From the NCBI GenBank assembly GCA_045636065.1, contig JAZTWW010000046.1:1489-65488 (forward strand): 64,000 bases of DNA. The letters are read 5' to 3'. Position 1 is the stretch's first letter, and the number at the start of each line of letters is the position of its first letter. This DNA is from Kiritimatiellia bacterium (GTDB lineage: Bacteria > Verrucomicrobiota > Kiritimatiellia > RFP12 > UBA1067). Under the pieces are notes generated by a model. The model was given only the letters and a program-made list of their open reading frames with translations, did no database searches and was not told the DNA's origin. The position numbers and the translations under genes were made by a program. Positions 286-62,664 of this stretch are shown here, one piece after another.

Positions 286-305
286 ACTCCACCTCCTAGA
301 CGCGA

Positions 306-320
306 ATATTATACCAAATC
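306..320 (-). promoter_or_regulatory. extended -10-like promoter motif (TTTGGTATAATAT on minus strand)
   Basis: Plus-strand tattataccaaat ~20 nt upstream of the ATG at 285. Member of a 12-copy conserved motif family in this window. Confidence 0.4.
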
Positions 321-400
321 CGCGACGGGAAGTAAATGAGAATATGTTTCGGACTAATTCTCAGAGGGGAGATCTGGTGGATGATGGGTGGGCGGGGGAG

Positions 401-437
401 CAAAAACAAAACGCCCGGATGGAGGGCCATCCAGGCG
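401..437 (-). terminator. putative rho-independent terminator ending the polysaccharide operon
   Basis: Minus-strand hairpin CGCCTGGATGG-ccct-CCATCCGGGCG (11-bp stem, 1 mismatch) followed by TTTTGTTTTTG. Lies just downstream of the last locus gene (stop 483). Confidence 0.45.
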
Positions 438-482
438 TTTGTGGGAATGTACGGGGGTATGGGGATTTATAACGGTGTAGAG

Positions 483-1436
483 TTACATATCTTCGATCGA
501 TTCGTCCCAGACCGGTGGGTTTGAACTTACAGTCCCCTGCAGTGTCTGGTGTACCTTCTCCGGAGTGGTCGGGCGTGGCTTTCCCGACATTCTTTCCGTG
601 GGAAGCGAATTCGGGGTTCTGTGCGATTTGAAGACGAAACCCCAGATCTTGAAGAGGTACTTGAGGTAGATAAGCGGGAGGCAAGACCAGATGCCGTGGG
701 AGCGGAGAGCACGCAGATCCTCAACGTTTATCTCGACATTCGAGCGCCAGCCGGCGGTGGAAGCCCCACCCATGCGCATCACAACCACACACTCCGGGAG
801 GTACGCCGCTTTCAACTTCGCCAAGTATAGATACCGCAACTCCAGCTCAAAGTCGGCACAGATGCGGTAGTCGAGCGAATAGCCTCCAAGGCGCTCAAAA
901 CACTCGCGCCGGACATAGAACGATGGATGCGGCACCATTGCGCCAAAGCGGAACATCCACGGCCGCCACCTCTTCGCCGAGCAGTAGCGCACAGTTGGCG
1001 CTTCGCGCAAAGCCTCAAGCGTGTCACCAGACCTCACAAAACGGATGTCGGCATACATACAATCCACTCCAGAACCACCGTCTTCCACACTGTCACCCTT
1101 GCGCGCATTGCAGCTGAAAGCACTGGCAATCTTTGCGAGAGTATCGTCCGAGGCAAGGACATCATCCGCATTCAGAATACCGACAACATCCCCTGTTGCC
1201 ATCTTAATGCCCTTGTTGATGGCGTCATACATGCCCCTGTCCGGTTCACTAATCCATCGCATCCTGCCATTGAACTTGGGCTCGTAATCCTTCAGCAGCC
1301 CAACAGTGCCATCCTTGCTACCGCCATCGACAACAATGTACTCAACATCGACGCCCTTCTGCGCCAGGACAGACTCTATCGCCGTATGGATTGTTGCCTC
1401 ACTATTGTAGCAGGCGGTTATAAGGGTTACCTTCAT
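483..1436 (-). CDS. glycosyltransferase family 2 (GT-A fold)
   Basis: Family motifs LITACYNSE...VVDGGSKDGT...ILNADD (GT2 DxD region). ATG confirmed at 1434-1436. Confidence 0.8.
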   Translation of the reverse strand: MKVTLITACYNSEATIHTAIESVLAQKGVDVEYIVVDGGSKDGTVGLLKDYEPKFNGRMRWISEPDRGMYDAINKGIKMATGDVVGILNADDVLASDDTLAKIASAFSCNARKGDSVEDGGSGVDCMYADIRFVRSGDTLEALREAPTVRYCSAKRWRPWMFRFGAMVPHPSFYVRRECFERLGGYSLDYRICADFELELRYLYLAKLKAAYLPECVVVMRMGGASTAGWRSNVEINVEDLRALRSHGIWSCLPLIYLKYLFKIWGFVFKSHRTPNSLPTERMSGKPRPTTPEKVHQTLQGTVSSNPPVWDESIEDM

Positions 1437-3403: not shown

Positions 3404-3682
3404 TTAGCAATAATACCGTCTCTCACCAAAATATGAATCCCATTTTGCCAATATTTCATCGACTCTTGCTTCTATTATTCTCTCAATATTGGCAAGCACC
3501 CGCCTATTGATCCCAGAGTTGTTATTGGCAATAAGGCACTTCCCTGCAGATGTAATCCATATCTTTGTTGCATTGGCCACAGGAGCACCCTCTGCCACAT
3601 GCACATGGACTGGCTCCAGCGGAATGTTTTCATTGGACCAGAAATAAACCCAATATGGGCCCGCCTTAAAAACCTGAGGCAT
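3404..3682 (-). CDS. DUF4160 domain protein
   Basis: Small protein MPQVFKAGPYWVYFWSNE...VHVHVAEG typical of DUF4160. Likely start at the internal Met (ORF-track start 3706). Paired with a DUF2442 gene. Confidence 0.55.
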   Translation of the reverse strand: MPQVFKAGPYWVYFWSNENIPLEPVHVHVAEGAPVANATKIWITSAGKCLIANNNSGINRRVLANIERIIEARVDEILAKWDSYFGERRYYC

Positions 3683-3938
3683 TGTCGAATCCTCCAGTTT
3701 CGGCAAACTCCATAATCAAATGCGCAGTTGACTTGATGACTTTCTCGATCTTTGATACATCCGCTTTTGAAAATCCATTAATATCTTCCCACTGATACCC
3801 TGGCAACCAGCAGGTTGCATTGCAAAAACACAGCTTTTCATCAGGTCTCTCGGCAAAAACCTTGACGCGCCCATCCTGCTTTGTTTCAGAATGGACGATC
3901 TCCGTTCCATCATCGAGTGTGAGAAATGGATACATCAT
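3666..3938 (-). CDS. DUF2442 domain protein
   Basis: 90-aa protein immediately upstream of, and overlapping, the DUF4160 gene. This pair is recurrently co-encoded in many genomes. Confidence 0.55.
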   Translation of the reverse strand: MMYPFLTLDDGTEIVHSETKQDGRVKVFAERPDEKLCFCNATCWLPGYQWEDINGFSKADVSKIEKVIKSTAHLIMEFAETGGFDNASGF

Positions 3939-3993
3939 GGTTGTGCCCTCTTCAAATTTTCTGCTGATAGTATACCATTACTCTGATACAAAG

Positions 3994-4845
3994 TCAAATA
4001 CACACTTTGCTCATACTTGCCAATTGTTCTTTGCGCTTGCGCAACCGGCCTATCTCTTTATCAACTAACCATCTATACCACAACCCTTGCCAAAAATGCC
4101 AAAGAAAGCCTGGGAGTCCATCAAGGAAGCCGAGCTTGAGGAAGTAGCGGATGCAGAAATAAGCAAAGGCCCGGAAGTAGGGCGGGAGTTTGTAATACTT
4201 AATCTTCTTCCGATCTGTGGCTGTAGGATTTGCGAGACGTTCTGGATTGTTGAAAAGTGAGACGGCATCCATTGCTTCGCGCTTGGCATAACCACGATGC
4301 TTATCTTGCCACCAATCAAACGAGTTTAGGTTGTCGTCGTAGAATACGCCGTTAAAATCAGCGCAACAACCCTCCGAAAGAAGGATATGTTCATCCATCG
4401 CCCTATCTTCGATGCGCCCGACTCCATACCGAAAAATACGTAAAAGACGAATGCCATTCGTGCCATGATGAATCTCACCGCCAAGGAACTTTCGCTTCAA
4501 TTCCAAAGTCAACCCTGAAATATCATCTGGCACCTTTGGTAGCCCATCCTTAAGCCTTTCAATTGTCTCTGGTGTAAGATACTCATCCGCATCTAGACGC
4601 AGCACCCACTTAGCCTCAATAGGAAGATTATCTAATGCCCAATTGAATTGCTTAGCATATAGTCCAGGCCATTTGTTAAATGCAGTAATCGCCCCCATCT
4701 CGAGAGCGATTTCATGAGTGCCGTCACTAGGCTGAGACTCCACGACAAATGTTTGCCGCGCCTCAAGCGGCTTCAATCGCTCAAGACAGCGCCGAATGTG
4801 AAGTTTTTCTTGCCCTACAAGTATTATTACAGCGATATCAGTCAT
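3994..4845 (-). CDS. glycosyltransferase family 2
   Basis: N-terminal IAVIILVGQEKLHIRRCLERL plus LRLDADEY (DxD) motif. Hydrophobic C-terminal tail FWQGLWYRWL. Confidence 0.75.
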   Translation of the reverse strand: MTDIAVIILVGQEKLHIRRCLERLKPLEARQTFVVESQPSDGTHEIALEMGAITAFNKWPGLYAKQFNWALDNLPIEAKWVLRLDADEYLTPETIERLKDGLPKVPDDISGLTLELKRKFLGGEIHHGTNGIRLLRIFRYGVGRIEDRAMDEHILLSEGCCADFNGVFYDDNLNSFDWWQDKHRGYAKREAMDAVSLFNNPERLANPTATDRKKIKYYKLPPYFRAFAYFCIRYFLKLGFLDGLPGFLWHFWQGLWYRWLVDKEIGRLRKRKEQLASMSKVCI

Positions 4846-24037: not shown

Positions 24038-25390
24038 CTAAATGAGATATTGCCGCGCACATGTCAGCAATCGGAGTAGATTTTTAGAATTATCAGAAGT
24101 CCAAGCACTGCTTGAACTTTCTTGTTTTTGAATATTATTAATAAGATCTGCTAGTTCATAACGCAATCCATCTCCGACAAAAGAACAAAACACGCGTCTT
24201 GTTGTCTGTCCCATATCATTTCTAACCTCAAAATATTCGGTTTTCCACCAAGGGCTTGGAACATAAATATAACCAGTCGTTCCCGCCACAGTCAAGGCTC
24301 CCTCTGACTTTGCAGACAAGCCTACCGTGAAGATTCCTGTCGCGGAGGGATACTTGATCATACCCGTCGCAAAGGACTCAACGCGATCACTTGGGTCACG
24401 AAGCGGATGAATCGTCATTTGTGATGGGTCAGCCGGACCGAGCAACTTGATAATCGGACAGAGTACATACGAGGCAAGTTCAGATATCGCGCCACCACCC
24501 ATTGCCGGATCGTACTCACGAAGTGTCTTATCGAGCGTTAACTTAGTAAAGACGGCGTTCACTTGGCGAATCTTGCCAATCACGCCCCCCTTCGCCAAGT
24601 TGACAAGCCGTTTGAAGCATGGGGCAAAGGCTGTCTTAAGAGCCTCCTGAAGAACAACACCGTTTTTCGACGCCAAGGCATAGAGATCCTTTGCTTCTTC
24701 ATAGTCAAGCGTCAATGGTTTCTCGCACAGGACATGCTTCTTTGCCGTTAGCGCCTTACGCACATAGTCGGCATGGAATGGATGCGGTGTGGCAACATAG
24801 ACGACATCGACAGATTGCAACATCACGTCAAAATCTGAATATGCATCCTTAATCGAATGCTTCGCGGCAAACTCATCTGCGAGATTTCGCATTGGATTGC
24901 ATACGGCATCAAACACGATGCCTGACACAAATCGACTTTCGACGATAAACCGATTGGCTATTCTCCCACAGCCGACGATCCCACCGCGGAGAATGTGCCG
25001 CGAATCATTTCGGATCATTGTCGAGCTAATGCCCTTCGTTCGCGGCAGATAAACCACTTCGCACCATTCTTTCAGATAATCATACTTTCCGAGCCAGTCG
25101 TCGCCAATGACAAAAACATCTATGCCGTAGCGCTGTACGTCTTCAATCTTCTGCCCCTCATATTCTTCAACAAATATTACGTCTGCCATCCCACTATCCT
25201 TGACTTGCCCCATCCGTTCGATGAGACTTTGCACAACATTCAGCTTGCCGCGCTCACGATCGTAATTTTCGCTTGTGACCCCAACGAAGAGCTTCCCGCC
25301 CGTACCGCAATACATTCGTGCTCTTTCCAGAATGCGGCGATGCCCATCATGAAAGAAATCAAATGTTCCGTATGTTATCACATTAGCCAT
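24038..25390 (-). CDS. bifunctional TagD-like cytidylyltransferase / Gfo-Idh-MocA oxidoreductase fusion
   Basis: N-terminus ITYGTFDFFHDGH (HxGH CTase) followed by a Rossmann GIVGCGRIANRF and Gfo/Idh/MocA dehydrogenase body. ATG at 25390 with AAGGAG SD; ORF-track TTG start at 25408. Confidence 0.75.
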   Translation of the reverse strand: MANVITYGTFDFFHDGHRRILERARMYCGTGGKLFVGVTSENYDRERGKLNVVQSLIERMGQVKDSGMADVIFVEEYEGQKIEDVQRYGIDVFVIGDDWLGKYDYLKEWCEVVYLPRTKGISSTMIRNDSRHILRGGIVGCGRIANRFIVESRFVSGIVFDAVCNPMRNLADEFAAKHSIKDAYSDFDVMLQSVDVVYVATPHPFHADYVRKALTAKKHVLCEKPLTLDYEEAKDLYALASKNGVVLQEALKTAFAPCFKRLVNLAKGGVIGKIRQVNAVFTKLTLDKTLREYDPAMGGGAISELASYVLCPIIKLLGPADPSQMTIHPLRDPSDRVESFATGMIKYPSATGIFTVGLSAKSEGALTVAGTTGYIYVPSPWWKTEYFEVRNDMGQTTRRVFCSFVGDGLRYELADLINNIQKQESSSSAWTSDNSKNLLRLLTCARQYLI

Positions 25391-25533
25391 TCTTTCTACT
25401 CCTTTCAAACTCTAATTCGTAATGTTTAGCACCGCCAACACCCAGCAATATACGAGCAATCCTCATATGAGCGCATACAAACTCCGCCCATATGTGGCAA
25501 CAATGTTCAGAAATATGCGACGATTAGGGGACA

Positions 25534-28566: not shown

Positions 28567-28578
28567 AGTCTGTGTGTA
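28567..28578 (-). promoter_or_regulatory. extended -10-like promoter motif (TATGGTATAATAC)
   Basis: Plus-strand tattataccata ~27 nt upstream of the antitoxin ATG. Confidence 0.4.
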
Positions 28579-29812: not shown

Positions 29813-29894
29813 GAATGCTCTCTTTCACACTGCAATAATGCTTTCTGTATCACGGTGCAATAAAGCGTTTTTTTACGGTTGAATAAAGCTTTCG

Positions 29895-30987: not shown

Positions 30988-30993
30988 GACATG

Positions 30994-38346: not shown

Positions 38347-38402
38347 ATTGAAGAAACTCCTCTTTTTGCAGAAACCGTTACCCTCCCCGAAGGAGGAGTG
38401 GA

Positions 38403-38415
38403 TATTATACCAAAT
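38403..38415 (-). promoter_or_regulatory. extended -10-like promoter motif (TTTGGTATAATAT)
   Basis: Plus-strand tattataccaaat in the accD upstream intergenic region, ~58 nt from the ATG. Confidence 0.45.
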
Positions 38416-38445
38416 TTGAGGGCAGGAGTCAAAAAGCCGCGGGCG

Positions 38446-40596
38446 TCAGCCGCCGCGAAGGAGGCGAGCCTCTTCGTCGCGGTTGAGGACCTCGACGAGA
38501 TAGGGGCCGTGCGGGCCGCGGTGGAAAAGGCCGTGAACCGCCTCGGGGCCATCCGATGCGATGACGTTCTTTATGAGAGCCACCATCGCCTTCGTCACCC
38601 TGAGCCCCGGCAGGAACACCGGGATCCCCGGCGGATAAGGGACGAGGAACTGCGAGGCGATCCGCCCTTCGGACTCCTCGATCGAAACGAGTTCGCCGTC
38701 GCAGAGCGCCGCCGCGTGCGGGAGTACCGCTATCTGCCCCGAGACAGCCGCCGAGACGCCCGCCGACGCACCCGCCGCATCGGGCCTTCCGATAAGCCCC
38801 TTCAAGCTTCGGCAGATCCTCAGGAGATACTCGAAATGCTCCTCCTCCGTGCCGGCCGTCACGAGGAAGAGGATCGTCGTCGCCGTGGCCTTCTCCCACT
38901 GGATATGGGCCTTCAGGAGGGCGTCCTTGAAAGTCTGGCACGCCTTGGCGCTTTTGAGCATCAAGACGATCTTGAGGGGGTCTTTCATGTACCCTTCGCC
39001 GCGCCAGTCGTAGCCGGGTGCGGCTATCTCGGAGAGGTCCGCGAACACGTCGCGCTCCTCCCTCTGGCATATCTCGGCGACGCGCCGCCTGAAGGCCCGC
39101 ACCCATCTCAGCCTCTCGTCGACGACCCTAAGCCCCTCAAGGCGCATCTGGACGCCCGCGATGTCGAGCGTAGCCATGAACGGGTACAGCGGACTCGTCG
39201 AATGCCAGTACCTGAGGATCTCGTGGAAGTCGTGGCTGAACTTCTCGTAGCTTCCTCGTCCGTGCAGGGAGAACCTGCGCCTGAGCCAGCGGAAGCCGGG
39301 GTTCGCGTCCTCTTCGAGAAGCTGCTTGAACCTGCTCGAAACGTGGATCATCGAAGCCTGCGAGAACGCGGCCAAGGTCTTGTGCGTCGACTGCACGGCG
39401 AAGTGCGCGCCCGCAAACGGGTTGATCGCGTTGTACCTCACGGGGTCGTCGTCATCGGTGTAGTGGATGTACTCTGGATGGAACGAGAGGTATGCGGCCC
39501 ACGCCTCGTCGGCGTAGAAGAGGACGCCCGCGCGCTCGCACATCTCGCCTATCTTCCATACGGGATAGAGGATGCCCTCGTAGGTGCATGTGGTGAGGAT
39601 GAGAAGCCTCGGGCTATCGCCCTGCGGTACGGCGGGGAAGAGTTCGCGGCGTATGTCCTCAAGCGCGACTGGGCCCCATACGCCAAGCCTTGCGTTGTAC
39701 ATCGCCGGGAGATAGCGCGGCACCGCGCCCGACATCGCTATCGCGTGGTGGACGCTCTTGTGGCAGTTCCTGTCGACGAGAACGGTCTCGCCCGGCCTAA
39801 GGAGCGTCTGTAGCATCGCCTTATTTGAGGTGCTCGTCCCGTTGGTCACGTAGCAGCTCTGCGCCGTACCGAATATCTCGCTCGTCAGCTTCTGCGCGAG
39901 CGACAGGGGCGAATGCGCCTCGGGGGACGAAAGATCCCCAAGGCTCTCCACGCTCACCGAAAGGTCCGTCCTGAATATCTCGCCAGAGAACGCCTGCCTG
40001 AAGCCTTTGAGGAAACTCGACGAGGCGAACGCGCGCCCGCCGTTGTGCCCGGGCGTATGCCAGTTGGCGCCGCCCCTGTTGCGCACGTACTGCCTGAGCG
40101 CAGTCCAGAAGCGCGGCATCCAGAAGCTCTTGAAAAGGTGCACGAGCCTTTCGTGGTGGCGCTCGGGGTGGACGAAGACCTCGATCGACTTCTTCGTCCA
40201 GCGGCGCTGCGGCATCGCGTGCGCGGCGTGGCCGGGCCACGTGACGAGAACGCGCGGAAGTGCCGGGAAGTAGGCTCTAAGCCAGGTGCGGAGCGGAAGA
40301 TCCTCGACGTACGAGTCGATAAGCGCGTCGTCAACGAGGAAAAGGCATGCGCCCTGCCCGTCCTCGGTAAGGCCCTGCGATTCGTCACCGCCAATGAAGA
40401 GCGCGTTCTCAAGCTCCGTCGCGCTCGACGCCGCAACGAGCTTGAGGGCCGGATAGTCGAGCCGCTCTATCGTGTCGAACGTCTCGCGGCAGAAATCCGA
40501 GAAGGCGTCCGAAAGCCCGGACTCCATCTGCGGAAGGATTTTCGCGTCCTTCTCCCCTGTCTTGTGGAGATAGAAGACGGTCAGGTTCGCGGACAT
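38446..40596 (-). CDS. Orn/Lys/Arg decarboxylase family (large fold-I PLP enzyme)
   Basis: 716 aa with PLP-lysine motif STHKTLAAFSQASMIHV. LdcI/AdiA-like size and wing domain. Confidence 0.75.
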   Translation of the reverse strand: MSANLTVFYLHKTGEKDAKILPQMESGLSDAFSDFCRETFDTIERLDYPALKLVAASSATELENALFIGGDESQGLTEDGQGACLFLVDDALIDSYVEDLPLRTWLRAYFPALPRVLVTWPGHAAHAMPQRRWTKKSIEVFVHPERHHERLVHLFKSFWMPRFWTALRQYVRNRGGANWHTPGHNGGRAFASSSFLKGFRQAFSGEIFRTDLSVSVESLGDLSSPEAHSPLSLAQKLTSEIFGTAQSCYVTNGTSTSNKAMLQTLLRPGETVLVDRNCHKSVHHAIAMSGAVPRYLPAMYNARLGVWGPVALEDIRRELFPAVPQGDSPRLLILTTCTYEGILYPVWKIGEMCERAGVLFYADEAWAAYLSFHPEYIHYTDDDDPVRYNAINPFAGAHFAVQSTHKTLAAFSQASMIHVSSRFKQLLEEDANPGFRWLRRRFSLHGRGSYEKFSHDFHEILRYWHSTSPLYPFMATLDIAGVQMRLEGLRVVDERLRWVRAFRRRVAEICQREERDVFADLSEIAAPGYDWRGEGYMKDPLKIVLMLKSAKACQTFKDALLKAHIQWEKATATTILFLVTAGTEEEHFEYLLRICRSLKGLIGRPDAAGASAGVSAAVSGQIAVLPHAAALCDGELVSIEESEGRIASQFLVPYPPGIPVFLPGLRVTKAMVALIKNVIASDGPEAVHGLFHRGPHGPYLVEVLNRDEEARLLRGG

Positions 40597-42360
40597 CTAT
40601 CTGCGCTCCTCTTTCTCCTTTGCGAAGAATCTTTCCCAGCGCGGTATGTACCAATCGCGGATAAGCTCGGGGTATTCGCGGTTGGCGTAGTCGGAAAGCG
40701 TGGTGACGCCGTACTTGGGGTCGGTCCATGTGGTGATCATGCGCCTCAGGGCCTTGACTCCGCGCTCGCCTGCGCGGCGGCGGGCCTTCGCCTCGTAGGT
40801 GGAGAGCCTGAAAGCGGTGGGGACGTTGTCGGGGTTGGGGGCCATGATCTTCGCCATCTCGATGAAGTTGACTCTCGCCTCGGGATGGGCCTTGAGATCG
40901 GGAGCGATGGCGCGCAGCCTGTCCGCGCCGATCTGGCGAGTAAGGTCGAATATGTCGTACGCCATGTTCTCGAGCTCCGGCCCTTCAGGGATCGCCCCGT
41001 CGGCGATGCGCTCTTTAAGTACGGCCAAAAGCGTCTCGATCGCATCGTGGAGCTTCCAGGGCTCGTACCAGATTCCGAGCTTGGGGCCCCATGTGCTTAC
41101 GCTATCGACGTCCCATGCGGGCTCGGCGCAGATGACGTTCTCGACGGCCCCCTCCTGGCAGCGGGGGCAGGCGTAGACGGTATTCTCGAGTATGTGCCAC
41201 GCATCGAAGGCGCGCGTATCGCCGAAGCCGTAGCGGTTCGCGACCCAGGTGTGCAGCCAGTTGCGAAGCTCGCGCGCCGTCATTTCGCTTCCTTTGGGGC
41301 GCATCATCATCTCCTCGAAGAGATCGTAGCAGACGGGATTTGTGAAGAGGCCCTCGGAGAGCAAGCCGTATCCCCTGAACGTCTTGGCGCCCGGGCCCTT
41401 CGCGGCGCGCCCGAGGCGCGAGAAGGTCTTGAGGTTTCCGTAGAGGCCATTGTTGCCGCCGAAGTTGAGGACTTCGCACCATACCCAGGGAAGATCGCCG
41501 AACTCGATCTTGCAGACGGAATCCTCCGCGTCGAATGCGGACATGTCCTTTACCAGCGCCTCGACGAGCGTGAAGCGAGGATCTAGCCCGGCGCGCACCT
41601 CCTTTGTCGGGTTGGCCTGCCATGCCTGGACGACCCAGGTGACGCCAGGGAACGCCGCCTGCTGCGCGGCCTGCACGGCCTTCGTGGCGGCGGTGACGTC
41701 TATGCCGCCCGACTTGCCGCCTTCGTGGAAGAGGTCGCCTGCAAGGTACTTCGGCTTTATGCCGTACACCTTTTCTAGGTTCCTGTGCCAGATCGCGGCG
41801 ACCTTGGCGTATTCGGCGCCGGTGGGGTCGAGGATCGGCGGGCGTTCGTAGACGCTCCAGAGCCCCTGCGGGATGGTTCCCGGGTGGGCGAGCGGCATCA
41901 TGCCGGTGTATCCCTGGAGGATCGGCTCGATGCCGCGGCGCCTCATCTCGGCGGCGAGCCATCTGCCGCGTTCGCCGTCCTCGTCGACGGTCGCCTGGTC
42001 GAGCGGGCCGCCTTCGCCCGTCAGGTTGCCCATGAGCCACCACGCCCTTGCACATTCATCGGGAAGGAAGTCGAAGATCTCCTTGTCGCCGTAGCCGAGC
42101 TCGCGCAGCGTAAGCTCCCAGACCTTGAACGTGCCGTCCGTAAGGAGCGCGACATTGTATCCGGCCTTTTCTAGGCGGTCGAGCTCACCGGTCCATTCCT
42201 CGCGGCTGTAGAACGCGAAAGTGTACGAGAGCGTGCAGTAGTTGTACGCGATCCTTATAGGCGCGGGCCCTTCCTCCGCAGGCGGAGCTACAGGCGCAGA
42301 CGGCGTTTCGGTCGCGGCCACCGCCGCAGCCAGCATTGTCCCCCAAAGTGAAATTCTCAT
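40597..42360 (-). CDS. secreted alpha-N-acetylglucosaminidase (GH89, NAGLU-like)
   Basis: Signal peptide MRISLWGTMLAAAVAAT. NAGLU tim-barrel-like body with conserved motifs YNVALLTDGTF and NFGGNNGLYG. Confidence 0.75.
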   Translation of the reverse strand: MRISLWGTMLAAAVAATETPSAPVAPPAEEGPAPIRIAYNYCTLSYTFAFYSREEWTGELDRLEKAGYNVALLTDGTFKVWELTLRELGYGDKEIFDFLPDECARAWWLMGNLTGEGGPLDQATVDEDGERGRWLAAEMRRRGIEPILQGYTGMMPLAHPGTIPQGLWSVYERPPILDPTGAEYAKVAAIWHRNLEKVYGIKPKYLAGDLFHEGGKSGGIDVTAATKAVQAAQQAAFPGVTWVVQAWQANPTKEVRAGLDPRFTLVEALVKDMSAFDAEDSVCKIEFGDLPWVWCEVLNFGGNNGLYGNLKTFSRLGRAAKGPGAKTFRGYGLLSEGLFTNPVCYDLFEEMMMRPKGSEMTARELRNWLHTWVANRYGFGDTRAFDAWHILENTVYACPRCQEGAVENVICAEPAWDVDSVSTWGPKLGIWYEPWKLHDAIETLLAVLKERIADGAIPEGPELENMAYDIFDLTRQIGADRLRAIAPDLKAHPEARVNFIEMAKIMAPNPDNVPTAFRLSTYEAKARRRAGERGVKALRRMITTWTDPKYGVTTLSDYANREYPELIRDWYIPRWERFFAKEKEERR

Positions 42361-42387: not shown

Positions 42388-42400
42388 ATATTATAACATA
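42388..42400 (-). promoter_or_regulatory. extended -10-like promoter motif (TATGTTATAATAT)
   Basis: Plus-strand atattataacata ~30 nt upstream of the GH89 ATG. Confidence 0.4.
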
Positions 42401-44359: not shown

Positions 44360-44544
44360 GCGTCGCCTTTCGGCTTGCCTGAGCCGTCCCCGTCAGACGT
44401 CTCCTTCTCGCCCTCCTTCATGCCCTTGGAGAATTCGCTCTTGGCCTTGCCGAGCGAACGCGCGAGTTCGGGAAGCTTCTTGCTTCCGAAAAGGAGGATG
44501 ATTATTATCGCAAGTATAAGAATCTGCCAAGGTCCGCTGAACAT
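44356..44544 (-). CDS. tatA: twin-arginine translocase subunit TatA/E
   Basis: 62 aa with an N-terminal TM helix ILILAIIIILLFGSKKLPELARSLG followed by a charged tail. Confidence 0.8.
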   Translation of the reverse strand: MFSGPWQILILAIIIILLFGSKKLPELARSLGKAKSEFSKGMKEGEKETSDGDGSGKPKGDA

Positions 44545-45747: not shown

Positions 45748-45765
45748 CTTTTCCTCCAAGGGACA

Positions 45766-45780
45766 TATTATACCATATTT
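45766..45780 (-). promoter_or_regulatory. extended -10-like promoter motif (TATGGTATAATAT)
   Basis: Plus-strand atattataccata ~20 nt upstream of the 45747 ATG. Confidence 0.45.
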
Positions 45781-45792
45781 GCGCCGGCAGTT

Positions 45793-46506
45793 CTAGAGGC
45801 GATTTATCAAGGCGGATGCGAAGGCGGGGACGGGGGTCTCGAAGGACATTTCGCGGCCGTCGTGCGGATGGAGGAACTTAAGCCGCCATGCGTGGAGGCA
45901 CATGCGCTTGGCGCCTTTGGCCGCGGGATTGTACTTCTCGTCCCCGACGACCGGGTGCCCGGCATCCTTGAACTGGACGCGGATCTGGTTGCGCCTGCCG
46001 CTTTTTAGGGCCACCCTCACAAGACTGTTGCCTTCCGGTGTCACGGCGACGAGCCGCCACTCGGTGCGGGCGAACTTGCCCTTGGACGGATCGGCGACGC
46101 TTCTCACGTAAAGATCCTCGTCCTCGGCGAGATAGCTCTCGAAAACGCCCTCCTCGCTCTCCATGCGCCCCTCGACAAGCGCAAGATACTCCTTCCAGGT
46201 GATCTCGTTCCAATGGCTGCGGAAGTACTGCTGCACCTCCTCGGTCTTGGCGACCATCATCACTCCGCTCGTCTCCCTGTCGAGCCTGTGGACGAGATAC
46301 ACCTTGAGCCGGCTCTTGAGCTGCCCCTTGCGCACATAGTCGCCAAGCATCGACTCGACGCTTCTCGTCTCGCCGCGCCTCGTTGGGCAAGTAAGGATGC
46401 CCGCCTCCTTCTCGACGACTATTACGTCCCTGTCCTCATACATTATCTCCACACCCCTCATCCTGCGCGACTTCGACCCGCCGCGCAGACCTGATCCGTC
46501 TTTCAT
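45793..46506 (-). CDS. RluA-family pseudouridine synthase
   Basis: Catalytic motif HRLDRETSGVMMVAK. Confidence 0.85.
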   Translation of the reverse strand: MKDGSGLRGGSKSRRMRGVEIMYEDRDVIVVEKEAGILTCPTRRGETRSVESMLGDYVRKGQLKSRLKVYLVHRLDRETSGVMMVAKTEEVQQYFRSHWNEITWKEYLALVEGRMESEEGVFESYLAEDEDLYVRSVADPSKGKFARTEWRLVAVTPEGNSLVRVALKSGRRNQIRVQFKDAGHPVVGDEKYNPAAKGAKRMCLHAWRLKFLHPHDGREMSFETPVPAFASALINRL

Positions 46507-49194: not shown

Positions 49195-49992
49195 TCAGGG
49201 CATCGGCGGGGGCGGCCCGCCCGGGCCCCTTCCCATCTGGGTGGCCTCGTACACGGCCTCGATTGTGTCGATGAAATCGGCGGCATCGTCGCCTTCAAGC
49301 CCCACGGTCCCGGCGGCGGCAGAAAGGAGCGCCGTGCGCTCCTCGCGCGCGGCGGCGCGAAGTTCGCGTTCAAGCTGGCGCATGGTCTCGAAGTTGGCGC
49401 GCCTATCGTCGTCGGAGAGGGATTCGTCGTCCGGCCTGAACGATGCGCGCATCTCGTCGACGGCATTTTGAAGCTCCTGGAACCTCGCATGCACGGCCTG
49501 CTGCTCGCTCGTGAGGATGCTCGTGTCGATGCTCGCTATTATGTCTCGCTTCTCGGCCTCGCGCTTCATCATGCTCGTGAAGTGGCGCTCCATCCTGGCG
49601 ATGCGGTTCGTGGTTCTCGTGTACTCCTCGGGGTCCTCCTTGGCGAGCTTGGCAAGCTCCTCCTCCGTGGGCGGACCAAAGCGCCGCTCGCCGCGCCCCC
49701 CAGGAAAACCACCGCGCTCGGGTCCGGAGACGGCGGGCACGGCCTCGATAGCGCTCTCGCGCGCCGGGGCCTCCTCGGCCTCCTTGAGGCGTGCTTCAAG
49801 CTCCTCGATGCGACGCCTGAGCTGCGGCACGAGATCGGCGCCGTCCTCGGAAGAGGCGGCGGCCTTGCGGACGCGGGTCTCAGGCCTATCCTTCACCTCG
49901 GCGTCGGGCGTGGCTATGGTGAAGCCCGCCCACCCGAGGGCGATCCCTGCAAAAAACGCAAATGCGTGGAATGTAATTGTCTTTCTGTCCAT
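49195..49992 (-). CDS. hypothetical secreted/membrane-anchored coiled-coil protein
   Basis: N-terminal hydrophobic segment FHAFAFFAGIALGWAGF, then a charged helical region and a Gly/Pro-rich C-terminus. Promoter motif abuts the ATG. Confidence 0.45.
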   Translation of the reverse strand: MDRKTITFHAFAFFAGIALGWAGFTIATPDAEVKDRPETRVRKAAASSEDGADLVPQLRRRIEELEARLKEAEEAPARESAIEAVPAVSGPERGGFPGGRGERRFGPPTEEELAKLAKEDPEEYTRTTNRIARMERHFTSMMKREAEKRDIIASIDTSILTSEQQAVHARFQELQNAVDEMRASFRPDDESLSDDDRRANFETMRQLERELRAAAREERTALLSAAAGTVGLEGDDAADFIDTIEAVYEATQMGRGPGGPPPPMP

Positions 49993-50000
49993 GGCCCGAT

Positions 50001-50009
50001 ATTATATCA
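50001..50009 (-). promoter_or_regulatory. extended -10-like promoter motif (TATGATATAATAT), leaderless configuration
   Basis: Plus-strand tattatatc 8 nt from the ATG at 49992. No SD. Confidence 0.4.
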
Positions 50010-51197
50010 TATTTTCGGCGTGTTGACCTTAACCCATTTCGAAATTCCGCCTTCGGCCGATTCGGCCTTTGCGGACTCCTCGATGGCCGTCGCGACGGCG
50101 ACGCTCCTGACGCCCTCCTCGATGCTCATTCCGAGGATCCTCTCGTCGTGCGAGCGGATCTTCTTGACGGTGCCGCGGATCTCGTCGTCGAAGTCGCGGT
50201 AGACGCGCGAAAGAGCCTCGATGTACGCATCGTTCGCGCCAAAGGGCGTAAGCGCGCTCGGGCCCTCGCCGTTGGCGCTGCGGTCGGTGAGTGTCTTCTC
50301 GGTGCCGTCGTTCTCGACGATCCTGAGCTCGCCCGGCCTGTCCTGGCGCCAGTACATGGCGGCCCTGTCGCCCGTAATCTCGAAGCTCAGCCCTTCGCTG
50401 TGCCCGACGGCAACGCTGCTCATCCTGAATACGCCGGCGGGGAGAGTCGTCGTCTTGACGAAGACGGCCGCATCGTCGGGCACCTGACGCCCGGGGACGA
50501 CTGCGCGCGCGAATGCGCAGACACTGCCGATCTCAAGGCCCGTAACCCATTCGAGCGCAAACTGGCAGTGGCACGAAAGCTCCGTTATCACGCCGCCCGG
50601 GCCGCTGTGGTGCGGGTCGGTGCGCCACAGGGCGCCCCTGTTGCCCTGGTTCTCGACGCGCCTCGCCATCCAGCCCTGCTGGAAGCAGATGTCGAAACGC
50701 CTCAAGATCCCGAGACGCCCCTCCTTGACGAGCTTGCGGGCCTTGACGAGCTGCGAGTAGGCCGGATACACCATGGCTATGCGGTATGGCACTTCCATGA
50801 AGCGCTGCTTCCTCGCGAGATTCGTGGCTTCGTCGAGGTTGCATGTGAACGGCTTTTCGCAGAGGACCGGCACATGGTTGTCCATCGCCGTCATCGTCAC
50901 AGGATAGTGGAGAGCGTTGGGCACGAGGACGCTCGCGAAGCGCGCGCGCTCCTGCGGGCTCTTGCGCCCCTCTCGCCTCAGGACGTCACGGTACGCGCCC
51001 ATGACCTGCTTCGAGTCGAGCCCATAGATTCCGGCGCTGTCGAAGCTCGACTGGCGCGTGGAACCGAACGCTCCGCTCGTTACTTCAAGACCGGCCTTCT
51101 TTATGGCCGCACGGTGCACGGCTCCCATGAAGGAGTTCATGCCGCCTCCGATGACACACAGTCCCGGACCCTTGCTAGCTGTAGGCAGTTTGCTCAT
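50007..51197 (-). CDS. Gfo/Idh/MocA-family oxidoreductase
   Basis: N-terminal Rossmann LCVIGGGMNSFMG and conserved EKP motif (VLCEKPF). Confidence 0.8.
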   Translation of the reverse strand: MSKLPTASKGPGLCVIGGGMNSFMGAVHRAAIKKAGLEVTSGAFGSTRQSSFDSAGIYGLDSKQVMGAYRDVLRREGRKSPQERARFASVLVPNALHYPVTMTAMDNHVPVLCEKPFTCNLDEATNLARKQRFMEVPYRIAMVYPAYSQLVKARKLVKEGRLGILRRFDICFQQGWMARRVENQGNRGALWRTDPHHSGPGGVITELSCHCQFALEWVTGLEIGSVCAFARAVVPGRQVPDDAAVFVKTTTLPAGVFRMSSVAVGHSEGLSFEITGDRAAMYWRQDRPGELRIVENDGTEKTLTDRSANGEGPSALTPFGANDAYIEALSRVYRDFDDEIRGTVKKIRSHDERILGMSIEEGVRSVAVATAIEESAKAESAEGGISKWVKVNTPKI

Positions 51198-51207
51198 CTT
51201 GGGTTAA

Positions 51208-51220
51208 ATCATACCAAATT
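51208..51220 (-). promoter_or_regulatory. extended -10-like promoter motif (TTTGGTATGATTT), leaderless configuration
   Basis: Plus-strand atcataccaaatt ~10 nt from the ATG at 51197. No SD. Confidence 0.4.
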
Positions 51221-51254
51221 TACCGCATCCAAATCAAGATAAAAATGCGGAAAA

Positions 51255-53413: not shown

Positions 53414-54112
53414 TCAGCCGCCTATCGCGAATGTTCCGCCCATCTCGATGAGATCGGGCCTCATGCGCCCCGTAAGGTCGAAGGCCTGGCGCCTGCGCCA
53501 CGATTCGGCCTTCGCGTGGTCGCCGCAGGAAAGCTCTCCGGGAACGGCGACGCCCCTGAAAACGGGCGGCCTCGTATACTGCGGAGCCTCGAGAAGCCCG
53601 CCCTCCGAGAAGCTCTCCTTTGTCGTGGCGGCCGTGCCGCCGCCGAGAACTCCGGGGATAAGCCTCACGATCGAATCGATCATCGCGGCAGCAGGGATCT
53701 CGCCGCCCGTAAGAACGAAATCGCCGATGGACACCTGGTCCGTCGCCAGGGCGTTGACCCTAGCGTCGATGCCCTCGTAGTGGCCGCAGATGAAAACGAG
53801 GTGTTCCTCCTTGGAGAACGCCTCGCTGTCGCGCTGGGAGTAGCGCCTGCCGGCGGGGGTCGTCATTATTATCCGGGAGCCGGGCGTCGCGACGGATTCA
53901 ATGGCGTCGAACCAGACGTCCGGCTTCATCAGCATCCCGGGGCCGCCCGAATAGGGACGGTCGTCCACGGTGCGGCGCCTGTCGCGCGCGAAGTCCCTCA
54001 GATCGACCGTCCTAATGAAAACCTTTCCCGCGCGGGCGGCGCGGGAAAGGATGCTCTCACCCAGAAATCCCCTGAACATCTCAGGGAACACGGTGATGAT
54101 GTCAATCTGCAT
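53414..54112 (-). CDS. trmD: tRNA (guanine37-N1)-methyltransferase
   Basis: Motifs MQIDIITVFPEMF, FICGHYEGIDAR and VLTGGEIPA. Confidence 0.9.
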   Translation of the reverse strand: MQIDIITVFPEMFRGFLGESILSRAARAGKVFIRTVDLRDFARDRRRTVDDRPYSGGPGMLMKPDVWFDAIESVATPGSRIIMTTPAGRRYSQRDSEAFSKEEHLVFICGHYEGIDARVNALATDQVSIGDFVLTGGEIPAAAMIDSIVRLIPGVLGGGTAATTKESFSEGGLLEAPQYTRPPVFRGVAVPGELSCGDHAKAESWRRRQAFDLTGRMRPDLIEMGGTFAIGG

Positions 54113-54872: not shown

Positions 54873-54885
54873 TAGTATACCAAAT
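54873..54885 (-). promoter_or_regulatory. extended -10-like promoter motif (TTTGGTATACTAC)
   Basis: Plus-strand tagtataccaaat ~80 nt upstream of rpsP. Confidence 0.4.
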
Positions 54886-54948
54886 TTTCCGCCCGGTTGC
54901 AAGTGTTTTTTAGATAAGCCGAAATTTGCGGATTTGCGTCAGGGATGT

Positions 54949-56299: not shown

Positions 56300-56704
56300 C
56301 TACTGCATCCTGATGCGAGCGGCGAGCGCGGCGAGCTCGGCCATGTCGGCCTTGCGGCCCGCAAATTCGAGAGGGTCGCCGTTTTTGCGCGGGATGATGT
56401 GGAAATGTATGTGGGGGACGGTCTGCCCGGCGGCGGCTCCGTTGTTCTGGAGGATGTTGAAGCCGTCGGCGCCAAGGGCTTCCTTCAGGTGGGCGGCGAC
56501 CTTCCTTACGCGGGCGATGAGGGATGCGAGCAGCTCGTCGCCGGCATCGAGAAGGCCCGTCCTGTGCTCTTTCGGTATCACAAGCGTGTGGCCTTCAGCA
56601 AAGGGATTGATGTCAAGGTAGGCAAGGGCGACGTCGTCCTCGTATATCTTGAACGAAGGGATTTCCCCTTCCGCTATCGCGCAGAATATGCAATCGTTTT
56701 TCAT
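56300..56704 (-). CDS. HIT-family (histidine triad) hydrolase
   Basis: Motifs MKNDCIFCAIAEGEIPS and HIHFHIIPR. ORF-track start 56926 rejected. Confidence 0.8.
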   Translation of the reverse strand: MKNDCIFCAIAEGEIPSFKIYEDDVALAYLDINPFAEGHTLVIPKEHRTGLLDAGDELLASLIARVRKVAAHLKEALGADGFNILQNNGAAAGQTVPHIHFHIIPRKNGDPLEFAGRKADMAELAALAARIRMQ

Positions 56705-56710
56705 GCGCGT

Positions 56711-56723
56711 ATTATACCAAAAC
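56711..56723 (-). promoter_or_regulatory. extended -10-like promoter motif (TTTGGTATAATAC), leaderless configuration
   Basis: Plus-strand tattataccaaaa 7 nt from the HIT ATG. Confidence 0.45.
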
Positions 56724-56750
56724 GCCGCATGCGAGGCAAGCCTCTCGGCA

Positions 56751-57563: not shown

Positions 57564-57595
57564 ACAAAAAAAGAATCCTCTTTCCGAGGATTCCT
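57564..57595 (-). terminator. rho-independent terminator downstream of tRNA-Asp
   Basis: Minus-strand GGAATCCTC-ggaaa-GAGGATTC hairpin followed by TTTTTTTG. Confidence 0.6.
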
Positions 57596-57613
57596 TTTTC
57601 CACGCTTCACAAC

Positions 57614-57688
57614 TGGCGGGCTCAAGGGGAATCGAACCCCTCTCTCCGGATCGACAGTCCGGGGTCCTAACCGATGAACGATGAGCCC
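57614..57688 (-). tRNA. tRNA-Asp (anticodon GTC), CCA encoded
   Basis: Manual fold: acceptor GGGCTCA/TGAGCCC, D-arm GTTC...GGAC, anticodon stem CCGGA/TCCGG with loop CTGTCGA, T-arm AGGGG-TTCGATT-CCCCT, discriminator G. Confidence 0.8.
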
Positions 57689-57710
57689 CTCGTGTCGTGA
57701 AGACGGTGTG

Positions 57711-57723
57711 TATTATACTAAAT
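57711..57723 (-). promoter_or_regulatory. -10-like promoter motif (TTTAGTATAATAC) for tRNA-Asp
   Basis: Plus-strand tattatactaaat ~23 nt upstream of the tRNA 5' end. Confidence 0.45.
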
Positions 57724-57749
57724 CCCCGTTTGAAAATCAAGTGGTATTT

Positions 57750-59760: not shown

Positions 59761-59785
59761 GATGCGTTTCCCTTCGCAGAAGATG

Positions 59786-62569
59786 CTAGAGGACCGTCAC
59801 CTTCATGCCTTCGTCGTCTATCGCGAAATCGAAGAAACGCCCGTCGCCGTTCGGCGGATCGGCTTCGAAGTCCTCCCTGATGGCGCGTGCGTCCTCAGCG
59901 CTCTTTGCGATCATGAAGACGAATCCGCCGCCGCCCGCGCCAGGGAGCATCGCGACAAGGACGCGATCCTTGACGCGTTCGAGCATCTCCTCGATCTGCT
60001 CCGTCGTGGAGCCGGGATCGATCGACTTCTTGAGCGACCAGTATTCCGCGACACCCTGCGCAAAGGCCTCGAGGTTCTGCGCGTCAAGGGCGCGGCGCGT
60101 CCTCTCGGCGCCTTCCTTGAGGCGGACGACTGTATCCATAAGGCCGCGGTCCCTGTCGAGATAGCGGTTGACGACGTTCTTGAGGATGTTCTTCGCAAGC
60201 CTCTTGCGGCCCGTGAAATAGAGGAGCGAACGCGCCCTGAAATCGTCGCCGAAGAGCCTCGCGGGAGTCCACCTGAGGCTCGGGGTCTGGTCGGGGCCGG
60301 GCTCGGTCCTGACGAGCTTGACGCCCGGGAGCATGCCGCCGAGCTGGTCCTGCCAGCCGCCGCCGGTACTCATCCTCTGCTCGAGGACGCTCGTAAGAAG
60401 CGTAAGGCGCTCCGGGTTGAACGGCTCGCCCGAAACCCTGTCGAGGCAGGCGAGAAGCGCGCAGCCGAGGATGCTCGAAGTGCCCATGCCGCTACCCTTG
60501 GGAAGCGCGGAGAATATCGTGATGTCAAGGCCTCCGCCAAACGCCTCAAGCCTCCTGGAGAGGCTCTCGCGCGGATCGGAGGGGACGATTCCCGTAAGGA
60601 CTAGCGCGGCCCTTGCAAGCGAATCCCATGCGTGGGGGTCGGGCGGCGCGAGAAGATCGGCCGTCTTCGTGTACGTTATGCTCTCGCCAAGGTCTATCGA
60701 GCTTACGCGGATCGCGTTCTTGCCGTTTAGCTTGGCCATCACCTGGACGGGGTACTGGCCATTGAGCGTGACGGCCGCATTGAGGACGCTTCCGCCAAGC
60801 TCCGTGGAGATCGGGGGAGTGTCGCTCCAGCCGCCCGCGAAATCGAGCCTCACGGGAGTCGTCACCCACACCACCTGGTCGCGGAGGATTGCGGCCTTCC
60901 TAGGCGGCATCTCGGGCGCGTTCTTCTGCACCCCGGCCGCAACCGCGTCGAGCGCGCGCTGCTGCCACTCCTGGGCCTCCTTCGCCCCCGAGATGTGGAC
61001 CATCAGCCGCGCGGCGCGCGCCTTGAGCGCCAGATCCTGCGTCCTTTCGACATACGCCGAAAGGACCTCCTTGAGCGAACGGCGCTCAGAGGGCGTTCTC
61101 ACGTCGGCAAGGATCGAACGTGCCTCAAGCCTGTCGTCTGATTCAAGCCTCGCTATGACCGTCTTCAAATTTACCGTGCGGGCGATCTCGCGCCTTACCG
61201 CGAGGAGCCTCGCGTGGTTCACCTGCGGCATCAGCTCCTTGAGCGAGCGCTTGCGGCCCCTTGCCGTGCCGGAGACGACGGCGTTGATCTCCCCGACCGC
61301 GAAGAGCGGCGCGTCCCAGAGGGTGCCCTCGCCTGTCATGGGCCTGTTGAGATACGTGCCTCCGCGCTCGAATGGCGTCTTGAAGTCGTCCTCGAGGCCG
61401 TACCTTACAGCGGCCCAGTCCTTCTCGCCGACAGGTATCGCGACGAGCCCCTCCCCCTGGCCGAGGATCACGTCAGCCGTACACTCCTTCGGAAGGCCGG
61501 TAAGGATGTTGCCGCCTGAAAGTATCGTGCGGCCCTTGACGCGGTGGCAGCCCTCGATGACGGCGCGCCCCCTGACATCCGGCGGAACGGAGAAGGAACT
61601 GTTGAAGATGAACGCGGAGCCCGGCGCGCCAAGGGGCGCAGGATCGTCAGGCGCGCAGCCGGAGCCTGCCGCGAAGGCGTACTGCGCGGCCGTCTTCGTG
61701 GGCTCCGTGAAGCCGGAGAGGAATTCCCTGGAGCTTCCGATGTGGAAGAACTCGCAGAACGGAAGGACGTTCACCGTGAAGCCCGTCCCCTTCATGGCGT
61801 CCCAAAGTTCGCCAAGCGCGGGGTTCTTCTTGGCGGCGAAGCGTTCGAGGTAGGCGTCTCGGCCGGTGACGAGAGCAAGGGTGAACTCCTCGTAGATGTC
61901 TGTTGCGGGAAGGTCGATCGTCCAGTTCCACGAAACGAGGCTGCGACAGGCGGCCGCATCGAGCGAGAGGATGCCCGTATCGACGGCGACGCGCGAAAAG
62001 ACGTCGCAAGCTCCGGCGGTGCGGGCCTCTGCGGGGGACGGCTTCTGCAGGAAGCCCGTCACCTTGACGCCGTCTGGGGCGACATATACGCCGTGGCGGC
62101 TTCCCTGGTCCATCGAGTCCCAGTAGGCTACGCCGGTGACGCCCGGGCGCGAAAAGTCGACGCCGCGGGGATCGAAGGTTAGAAGGACGTCGCCAGACAT
62201 GACGAGGAGCTGGCCGCCCTCGGGTGCGGGAAGCTCGGCGGCGTTCCTGACGATCAGGTCGAAGAGCGACGCGCCGCACGGCATGGGCGTAAAGATCTTT
62301 CCTGCGGCGGCATAGGCCGGGAGGCGCTTCGAATCGCCGCCCGAATGGCAAACGAGAATGCGCCTCGAACCGATGTCCCCCACGAGCCTCAGGACGTTCA
62401 CGGTGGCGGCGAGGCTTCCGACGCGCTTCCCGCCCGGATCGCACACGACGCGCACCTCGTCGGCGAACGCCTCAAGCCCCGAGCCCATGCGCCAGGCCAG
62501 TTCGGCCCTGTATCCGGCGGCCTGCGCCTCGTTCGCGGCCGTCACAACGAGCATATCGAATTTTTGCAT
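59786..62569 (-). CDS. fkp: bifunctional L-fucokinase / fucose-1-phosphate guanylyltransferase
   Basis: 927 aa with N-terminal pyrophosphorylase domain and C-terminal GHMP-kinase motif LPKGSGMGTSSILGCALLACL. Architecture of Bacteroides Fkp. Promoter motif abuts the ATG. Confidence 0.8.
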   Translation of the reverse strand: MQKFDMLVVTAANEAQAAGYRAELAWRMGSGLEAFADEVRVVCDPGGKRVGSLAATVNVLRLVGDIGSRRILVCHSGGDSKRLPAYAAAGKIFTPMPCGASLFDLIVRNAAELPAPEGGQLLVMSGDVLLTFDPRGVDFSRPGVTGVAYWDSMDQGSRHGVYVAPDGVKVTGFLQKPSPAEARTAGACDVFSRVAVDTGILSLDAAACRSLVSWNWTIDLPATDIYEEFTLALVTGRDAYLERFAAKKNPALGELWDAMKGTGFTVNVLPFCEFFHIGSSREFLSGFTEPTKTAAQYAFAAGSGCAPDDPAPLGAPGSAFIFNSSFSVPPDVRGRAVIEGCHRVKGRTILSGGNILTGLPKECTADVILGQGEGLVAIPVGEKDWAAVRYGLEDDFKTPFERGGTYLNRPMTGEGTLWDAPLFAVGEINAVVSGTARGRKRSLKELMPQVNHARLLAVRREIARTVNLKTVIARLESDDRLEARSILADVRTPSERRSLKEVLSAYVERTQDLALKARAARLMVHISGAKEAQEWQQRALDAVAAGVQKNAPEMPPRKAAILRDQVVWVTTPVRLDFAGGWSDTPPISTELGGSVLNAAVTLNGQYPVQVMAKLNGKNAIRVSSIDLGESITYTKTADLLAPPDPHAWDSLARAALVLTGIVPSDPRESLSRRLEAFGGGLDITIFSALPKGSGMGTSSILGCALLACLDRVSGEPFNPERLTLLTSVLEQRMSTGGGWQDQLGGMLPGVKLVRTEPGPDQTPSLRWTPARLFGDDFRARSLLYFTGRKRLAKNILKNVVNRYLDRDRGLMDTVVRLKEGAERTRRALDAQNLEAFAQGVAEYWSLKKSIDPGSTTEQIEEMLERVKDRVLVAMLPGAGGGGFVFMIAKSAEDARAIREDFEADPPNGDGRFFDFAIDDEGMKVTVL

Positions 62570-62575
62570 AGGTGT

Positions 62576-62588
62576 ATTATACTAAATC
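62576..62588 (-). promoter_or_regulatory. -10-like promoter motif (TTTAGTATAATAC), leaderless configuration
   Basis: Plus-strand tattatactaaat 7 nt from the fkp ATG. Confidence 0.45.
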
Positions 62589-62664
62589 CATCCCTTTAGT
62601 TCAAGGACAACGCGCGGAGGGGAGAAACGGACGCATTGGAAACGTTTCAGCGATCAGCAGCCGA

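Follow-up and report, generated by a model that had tools for sequence, protein, structure and literature searches.

Predicted extended −10 promoters at the fronts of transcription units, five of them probably leaderless, in a 64-kb stretch of DNA from a Kiritimatiellia-like bacterium

Promoters of the sigma-70 class have a −10 element, TATAAT, which can be preceded by an extended −10 (“−16”) element, TRTG, with which sigma region 3.0 makes contact. The TRTG extension has been documented before, mainly in Firmicutes (bioRxiv 10.1101/2025.01.23.634641). A second described arrangement that bears on the DNA analysed here is group C of GeneMarkS-2, common in Actinobacteria and Deinococcus-Thermus, in which a Pribnow box lies ~10 nucleotides (nt) from the starts of first genes and 25-50% of operons are leaderless (PMC6028130). 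We analysed a 64,000-nt stretch of contig JAZTWW010000046.1 (the window, by which we mean the whole stretch), in which a TATAAT-containing motif, TTTGGTATAATAT, recurs in front of genes and operons. We propose, with a probability of roughly 0.82, that the sites carrying this motif are independent primary promoters of the sigma-70/SigA type, of the TRTGnTATAAT kind, and that five of the units they front are probably leaderless. The arrangement is a known one that is new for this lineage, and it involves no new mechanism.

With up to two mismatches allowed, TTTGGTATAATAT has 12 matches in the window, all of them on the minus strand (positions 306, 28576, 30993, 38402, 42388, 45765, 49999, 51206, 54872, 56709, 57710 and 62574), while dinucleotide shuffles of the whole window gave a mean of 0.63 matches and a maximum of 3. 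The original prediction, made from the sequence before this analysis, of twelve copies just upstream of minus-strand starts is thus borne out, and its coordinates are correct to within 1-2 nt apart from “28567”, which should read 28576. Its description of the copies as near-identical was too strong, since two are exact, two have one mismatch and eight have two. All ~63 credible genes and the tRNA gene lie on the minus strand across the 64 kb, as judged from the open reading frame (ORF) list, codon-position GC and Pfam (the minus-strand genes in the half of the window with 62% GC have a codon-position GC of ~0.6/0.45/0.8). Because every real gene is on one strand, strand bias alone is not independent evidence and position relative to gene starts is, and for this reason we used a stricter null in which sequence was shuffled inside each non-coding segment (non-coding DNA makes up 9.8% of the window and has a GC content of 48%). 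Under this null, 0.26 matches are expected on both strands together, against 12 observed in the sense orientation and none antisense.

All 12 copies lie within or adjoin non-coding DNA, at 6-81 nt from a start codon or, in one case, 23 nt from tRNA-Asp, and none of the operon-internal genes of the window is preceded by a copy. The strict form TGnTATAAT, which is how the motif had been read originally, is present in 8 of the 12 sites; the whole window contains nine such sequences against 0.92 expected, and eight of the nine are at gene fronts. The ninth, a plus-strand candidate, TGTTATAAT at 11628, was rejected. An ATG 5 nt further on opens a 369-amino-acid (aa) ORF, which has no Pfam match and is antisense to a solid AMP-binding gene, and about one chance match of this kind is expected.

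When aligned on the hexamer, the 12 sites are conserved only in three blocks: cTTGa at −35, AAAT-T-TGG in the extended −10 region and TATAAT. The hexamer is TATAAT in 10 sites, with TATGAT and TATACT occurring once each, and the extended −10 dinucleotide TG (positions −15/−14) is likewise present in 10, the sites at 57710 and 62574 reading TTTAG. A search for matching −35 elements located a box (TTGnnn or TTTACT) at a distance of 17-18 bp in about 9 of the 12. A generic consensus scanner that was untrained on the sites recovered TTGACT-17-TATAAT (38402), TTGAAC-17 (62574), TTGATT-17 (57710), TTGCCT-17 (56709), TTGCAA-17 (54872) and TTGATT-18 (51206), and untrained consensus scoring placed the 12 sites on top. 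Of the 12 best scan matches in the 62% GC half, 11 were intergenic minus-strand sites; the remaining one, a promoter-like match at 44501-44530, lies within the tatA coding sequence and was rejected. In their hexamer, TG, −35 spacing and orientation toward a transcription unit, the sites have the properties of sigma-70/SigA extended −10 promoters. The cleanest independent anchor is the tRNA-Asp gene, because its 5′ end is defined by structure and not by ORF calling: as originally predicted, the motif heads this gene, the tRNA 5′ end lying 23 nt after the hexamer, and a terminator is present downstream. The tRNA was also the sole Rfam match above gathering thresholds, and this search provided no leader RNA that could anchor transcription starts.

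The sites resemble the SigA “−16” TRTG promoters of Firmicutes in having the form T(A/T)TGnTATAAT, an optional TTGACA-like −35 box at 17 bp and a predicted start ~7 nt downstream. Known extended −10 promoters tolerate a poor −35, and several sites in the window, together with most of those in its relatives (described below), likewise have one. The TRTG consensus has a purine at −16, whereas the window sites have T at −17, which is conserved in the relatives' sites too, and T or A at −16, so that they mostly read TTTG. The host also differs: it is not a Firmicute or E. coli but belongs, with its high GC content, to the PVC group (Planctomycetes, Verrucomicrobia, Chlamydiae).

Alternatively, the motif could be the operator of a global regulator, or a dispersed repeat or mobile element that resembles TATAAT, as might be suspected from its 13-nt core, “AAAT-TTGG-TATAAT-A”, which is more uniform than is usual for promoter sets. 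Some of that uniformity arises because a 13-nt pattern was used to select the sites. The copies are unalike apart from the −35 and −10 blocks, and they have no inverted-repeat symmetry; since only these blocks are common to them, the copies are independent sites rather than copies of a longer repeat, and a longer repeat or mobile element was rejected on the basis of the alignment. Moreover, the −35 and start spacing match the geometry of RNA polymerase, and relatives at 60-66% protein identity keep the core at non-orthologous genes. We consider an operator or a dispersed repeat to be extremely unlikely.

In five units, the hexamer is followed almost directly by the ATG, with a spacing of 6 nt for the HIT gene, 6 nt for fkp, 7 nt for a PD-(D/E)XK nuclease gene (PDDEXK_3), 8 nt for a gene encoding a 265-aa membrane protein and 10 nt for a Gfo/Idh/MocA oxidoreductase gene (Gfo). 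Across bacteria, transcription starts centre 7 bp past the −10 element (bioRxiv 10.1101/2025.01.23.634641), and by this rule the predicted +1 is the A of the ATG for HIT, in which that A is the 7th nt after the hexamer, and for Fkp, and falls within 1-4 nt of it for the other three. The spacing and the 7-bp rule suggest that all five genes are probably leaderless, which would be the most economical explanation for them, with the qualification that a leader of 2-4 nt is predicted to be more likely than none for Gfo. Four of these genes had been proposed to be leaderless originally, on a spacing of 7-10 nt (we counted 8, 10, 6 and 6 nt at 49999, 51206, 56709 and 62574); that proposal stands as a prediction for the four, and it overlooked the fifth gene, PDDEXK_3, at 30987.

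To these five starts we found no Shine-Dalgarno (SD) site, nor space for one, when duplex energies were calculated with a canonical anti-SD sequence (the 16S gene lies outside the window). The energies of the five, −2.5 to −3.1 kcal/mol, compare with a background of −3.25 kcal/mol and a mean of −5.5 kcal/mol for the other genes; 46% of the other genes, compared with 15% of background (random coding) positions, reach −6 kcal/mol or lower. The absence of SD sites at the four genes named originally is thereby confirmed, and the SD sites that had been reported at 285, 25390, 45747 and 49178 are present. The organism uses both SD-led and non-SD starts, and the occurrence of both modes in the window fits the 63% SD usage surveyed for Kiritimatiellae (PMC10783764).

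The five ATG-proximal hexamers stand at an SD-like distance (6-10 nt) from their starts, and the genes are co-directional with short gaps, which makes read-through transcripts plausible. These hexamers might, then, be A/U-rich non-SD ribosome-binding or enhancer elements carried on read-through transcripts, like those of GeneMarkS-2 group B (Bacteroidota). However, the same motif, with TG and −35, also lies 19-81 nt from starts that have SD sites of their own, it fronts an untranslated tRNA, and 17-bp −35 boxes accompany the HIT, fkp and Gfo sites. In addition, every gene has such a motif in front of it in group B genomes (PMC6028130), whereas the motif of the window is never found before operon-internal genes. 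A role in ribosome binding is, in our judgement, very unlikely.

It could also be that the sites are promoters but that the five leaderless calls reflect wrong start codons, the true starts lying downstream on leadered transcripts. In-frame ATG or GTG codons are indeed present downstream, at codon 5 of PDDEXK_3, codon 6 of Fkp and codon 20 of Gfo, the last of these after GGAGG. We rejected the Gfo codon-20 start because the protein would lose the first strand of its Rossmann fold together with the glycine loop, whose GGG is what the GGAGG encodes. Starts at codon 5 or codon 6 would be equally without SD sites, and downstream alternatives in general either lack one or would cost conserved residues, as with the CIFC motif of HIT. 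All five candidate starts are ATG, and no alternative start was found upstream of any of them; in-frame stops occur 3-5 codons upstream of the ATG for the 265-aa protein, Gfo (3 codons) and Fkp. Pfam coverage of the candidates begins near residue 1 to 12; for HIT and PDDEXK_3, residues 12 and 10, respectively, are the first to be aligned and match profile positions 2 and 3. The N-terminus of the 265-aa protein is a hydrophobic segment, and the HIT start is identical in an independent gene call from a public assembly (one 3-kb Logan contig, the only one on which HIT was found). We think it improbable, to a like degree as a ribosome-binding role, that the starts have been misassigned.

Our data suggest, therefore, that the sites are very probably promoters, and from their elements, spacing and position we infer promoter activity, the exact starts of transcription and the mode of translation. 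T(T/A)TG before the hexamer would act as an extended −10 and TTGnnn 17-18 bp upstream as the −35, and transcription would start ~7 nt past the hexamer. In eight units (seven protein-coding units and tRNA-Asp, counting a 13th promoter described below), the transcript would have a leader of 13-75 nt, usually with an SD site. In the other five (with ATGs at 30987, 49992, 51197, 56704 and 62569), it would start on the A of the ATG or 1-4 nt before it, and the resulting leaderless mRNAs would be translated through direct recognition of the 5′-terminal AUG by ribosomes with initiator tRNA. Genes further along each string would rely on SD sites or on stop/start overlaps with coupled translation.

This architecture is also found in related genomes. 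The best matches of RsgA (a single marker, the window having no rRNA gene) are 60-66% identical and come from metagenome-assembled rumen and gut genomes labelled Kiritimatiellia or Kiritimatiellae, with some labelled Verrucomicrobia, Lentisphaeraceae or “uncultured bacterium”, and we regard the host as a GC-rich, Kiritimatiellia-like gut or rumen bacterium of the PVC group. Loci from the relatives repeat the layout of TGGTATAAT followed by 6-10 nt and an ATG. In ~130 kb of these loci there are 19 unique TGnTATAAT sites, nearly all of which face a long ORF with high third-position GC (GC3), and their spacing is bimodal: about half lie 6-10 nt from the start without an SD site, and the others are separated from it by 19-85 nt, in most cases with a GGAG-type SD site. 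In a start-anchored test without motif seeding (127 GC3-filtered ORFs in 163 kb), a −10-like hexamer was present 5-10 nt before the first ATG in 15 of 127 ORFs (11.8%), compared with a base rate of 0.87% for all ATG trinucleotides (p = 6e-13). The window and the relatives are syntenic only over hyp123-rsgA, plus HIT in one locus (L016), so orthologous promoter footprinting was impossible and non-orthologous architecture was compared instead. Orthologues seem to move freely between having a leader and lacking one: HIT, predicted to be leaderless in the window, is leadered with an SD site in L016, and RsgA, which is operon-internal in the window, has its own predicted leaderless promoter in L003 and L006.

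In Actinobacteria, leaderless promoters typically have TANNNT and nothing more. The sites described here differ from them in lineage and in having a near-perfect TATAAT with TG and often a −35, but they share with group C a Pribnow box 6-8 nt from the starts of first genes, the remaining genes having SD sites. The hexamer peak 5-10 nt before first ATGs and the enrichment of SD sites elsewhere, which assign a genome to group C, are both present in the 163 kb of sequence considered, as opposed to whole genomes. Of the 12 protein-coding promoters, five (~40%) are predicted to be leaderless, which falls within the 25-50% given for group C. On the broader proposal that Kiritimatiellia are a leaderless-rich lineage beyond Actinobacteria and Deinococcus-Thermus, in which ~40-50% of units would start at the AUG and promoters would have an unusually consensus-like TRTGnTATAAT with a largely dispensable −35, we are evenly balanced.

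Two other comparisons are informative. Akkermansia muciniphila belongs to a related phylum in the same superphylum and shares the gut habitat, and Cappable-seq of this bacterium in the mouse gut mapped starts with a −35 and TATAAT, 10% of them on annotated start codons (PMC4782308). It differs in phylum and class and has a lower GC content, and the apparent leaderless fraction of the window is higher when counted per transcription unit. Bacteroidota are similarly gut-associated and have many genes without SD sites; however, their promoters (TAnnTTTG at −7, TTTG at −33) differ from the canonical TATAAT with TG in the window, where SD use is also clear, and because of these differences in consensus and SD use the window is not of the Bacteroidota type. 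We found no publication in our literature search that dealt with promoters or leaderless mRNAs in Kiritimatiellota.

Several observations weigh against the proposal that the sites are promoters and that five of them give leaderless mRNAs. A convincing −35 is absent at 30993, 42388 and 49999 and, to a lesser degree, at 45765, and −35 conservation is almost nil among the relatives' sites. The sites were chosen with a 13-nt pattern, and the conservation at −6 and −5 is in part a bias of that selection. The spacing at Gfo (10 nt) and, less so, at the 265-aa gene (8 nt) predicts a leader of 1-4 nt. With co-directional and closely spaced genes, read-through from upstream could reach every “leaderless” gene, for example HIT, which follows uppP, and the 265-aa gene, which follows Gfo. 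First genes without the motif include uppP and a ~25-kb polysaccharide cluster that starts at 25390, and the operon map is incomplete to that extent. Lastly, the 15 start-anchored hexamers include a few orthologous duplicates (L003/L006 and L007/L008).

The gene that each site fronts is the first of a tightly packed series with a common direction, as defined by the ORF list and Pfam, and the operon map proposed originally is largely right, although it missed one unit, at 42388, and the 13th promoter. From left to right in the window, and on the minus strand throughout, promoter 1 (308-336) has TTTACT, a 17-bp spacer and TTTGG-TATAAT and lies 22 nt from the ATG at 285, which has the SD site AGGAGG; the gene extends past the left end of the window. 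The 13th promoter (3969-3997), detected by untrained scoring, reads TTGACT-17-TGGTATACT, with TGG-TATACT as its −10 region and a predicted leader of ~30 nt, and fronts a small gene pair inside the polysaccharide cluster, a 90-aa ORF (3666-3938) and an ORF that overlaps it (3404-3682). The cluster itself, ~25 kb of glycosyltransferase and polysaccharide genes, occupies the left part of the window. GC content steps from 40-52% in 1-32000 to ~62% in 32001-64000 and is lowest at 16-28 kb, and the low-GC cluster looks horizontally acquired. No consensus promoter was found at the head of the cluster (~25390-25530).

The DUF6922/AbiEii toxin-antitoxin pair, which the motif heads as had been predicted, has its promoter at 28578-28607 (TTGCAT, 18 bp, TATGG-TATAAT), and its leader would measure 16 or 37 nt according to the ATG chosen. 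A further extended −10-like site (28819-28847, TTGAAC-17-TGGTATTAT) precedes the DUF6922 start by 278 nt, in non-coding DNA. No gene is evident directly downstream of it, and it might serve a small RNA or provide the toxin-antitoxin pair with a second promoter. The PDDEXK_3 site (30987-31005) has TCTGG-TATAAT with a weak −35 and lies 7 nt from the ATG at 30987 (gene 30607-30987).

Around the PDDEXK_3 gene, at 28900-31600, is a repeat-rich non-coding mosaic. Within it, an element of ~345 nt is present three times, in two direct copies that are 94% identical (30046-30390 and 31171-31515) and one inverted, partial copy (29025-29255). RNA from the minus strand of this element would form a long hairpin of ~170 nt (−100.5 kcal/mol, z = −6.7) followed by a hairpin of CCGCCGAAGGCGG plus a T-run; the element has no credible Rfam match. 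The mosaic also contains a 71-nt repeat in four copies and a truncated second copy of the 3′ end of PDDEXK_3 (29902-29985), and it could represent structured RNA, a miniature mobile element or cassette debris.

In the GC-rich half, the promoter at 38404-38432 (TTGACT, 17 bp, TTTGG-TATAAT) scores 11/12 plus TG and precedes, with a 57-nt leader, the string accD, accA, a GyrA/ParC-like gene, a HemC-methylase-HemD gene and NYN. The original labels accD, accA and NYN hold for this operon; its “topoA” is a subunit of the GyrA/ParC family and its “hemCDA” is a HemC-methylase-HemD fusion. A terminator-like hairpin (38435-38451) overlaps the −35 of this promoter. The predicted accD transcript would open directly with a stable stem-loop, CTCCTCCTTCGGGGAGGG (38383-38403), which may be an mRNA-stabilising hairpin. 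The unit missing from the original map consists of NAGLU (40597-42360) and an Orn/Lys/Arg decarboxylase gene (38446-40596). Its site (42390-42400) has TATGT-TATAAT and lies 29 nt from the ATG at 42360, which has the SD site AAGGAG.

The next promoter (45767-45795; TAGAAC, 17 bp, TATGG-TATAAT) serves a GT4 (MraY/WecA-like) gene, tatA, uvrC and ybeY, and is 19 nt from the ATG at 45747, which has the SD site GGAGG. The identity of tatA, as given in the original map, was confirmed. The stop codon of rluA, TAG (45793-45795), sits inside its −35. The site of the 265-aa membrane protein gene (49992-50011, TATGA-TATAAT) lies 8 nt from the ATG at 49992, and psd, pssA, a radical-SAM gene and rluA follow in the same string. 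Here the stop codon of Gfo, TGA (50007-50009), supplies the TG of the extended −10. Since both stop codons are embedded in the next promoter, the transcription units are very tightly packed. Gfo itself (50007-51197) is preceded by a site (51197-51237) with TTGATT, 18 bp and TTTGG-TATGAT, 10 nt from the ATG at 51197, and inspection by eye located a terminator-like hairpin adjoining its −35 at ~51219-51250.

The promoter of rpsP, rplS, trmD, aroQ and SBP (54874-54902; TTGCAA, 17 bp, TTTGG-TATACT) has a predicted 81-nt leader. Just after rplS, within the first 30 codons of trmD, is a 12-bp GC-rich hairpin with a T-run (54022-54050), which could be an attenuator or terminator that splits rpsP-rplS from trmD-aroQ-SBP, or could be a coincidence. 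The HIT site (56704-56739; TTGCCT, 17 bp, TTTGG-TATAAT) lies 6 nt from the ATG at 56704, and the HIT gene (56300-56704) is followed by a gene for a 123-aa hypothetical protein and rsgA. The tRNA-Asp unit (57573-57740) comprises the promoter (57712-57740; TTGATT, 17 bp, TTTAG-TATAAT), the tRNA (57614-57688) and an intrinsic terminator hairpin with a T-run (57573-57593). At the right end, the fkp site (62569-62604; TTGAAC, 17 bp, TTTAG-TATAAT) lies 6 nt from the ATG at 62569; Fkp, a fucose pyrophosphorylase/kinase of 927 aa (59786-62569), is followed by DUF6930 and a CaCA exchanger. An exact-sequence search for Fkp in public assemblies gave no match.

A motif that is so distinct in these GC-rich genomes marks the boundaries of transcription units and would provide an operon map for uncultured polysaccharide degraders of the gut and rumen. 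It would also fix true start codons that gene finders tuned to SD sites may misplace, and the sites could serve as strong promoters, already at hand, for genetic work on the group. If our proposal is true, a PVC lineage joins those bacteria in which leaderless translation is used heavily.

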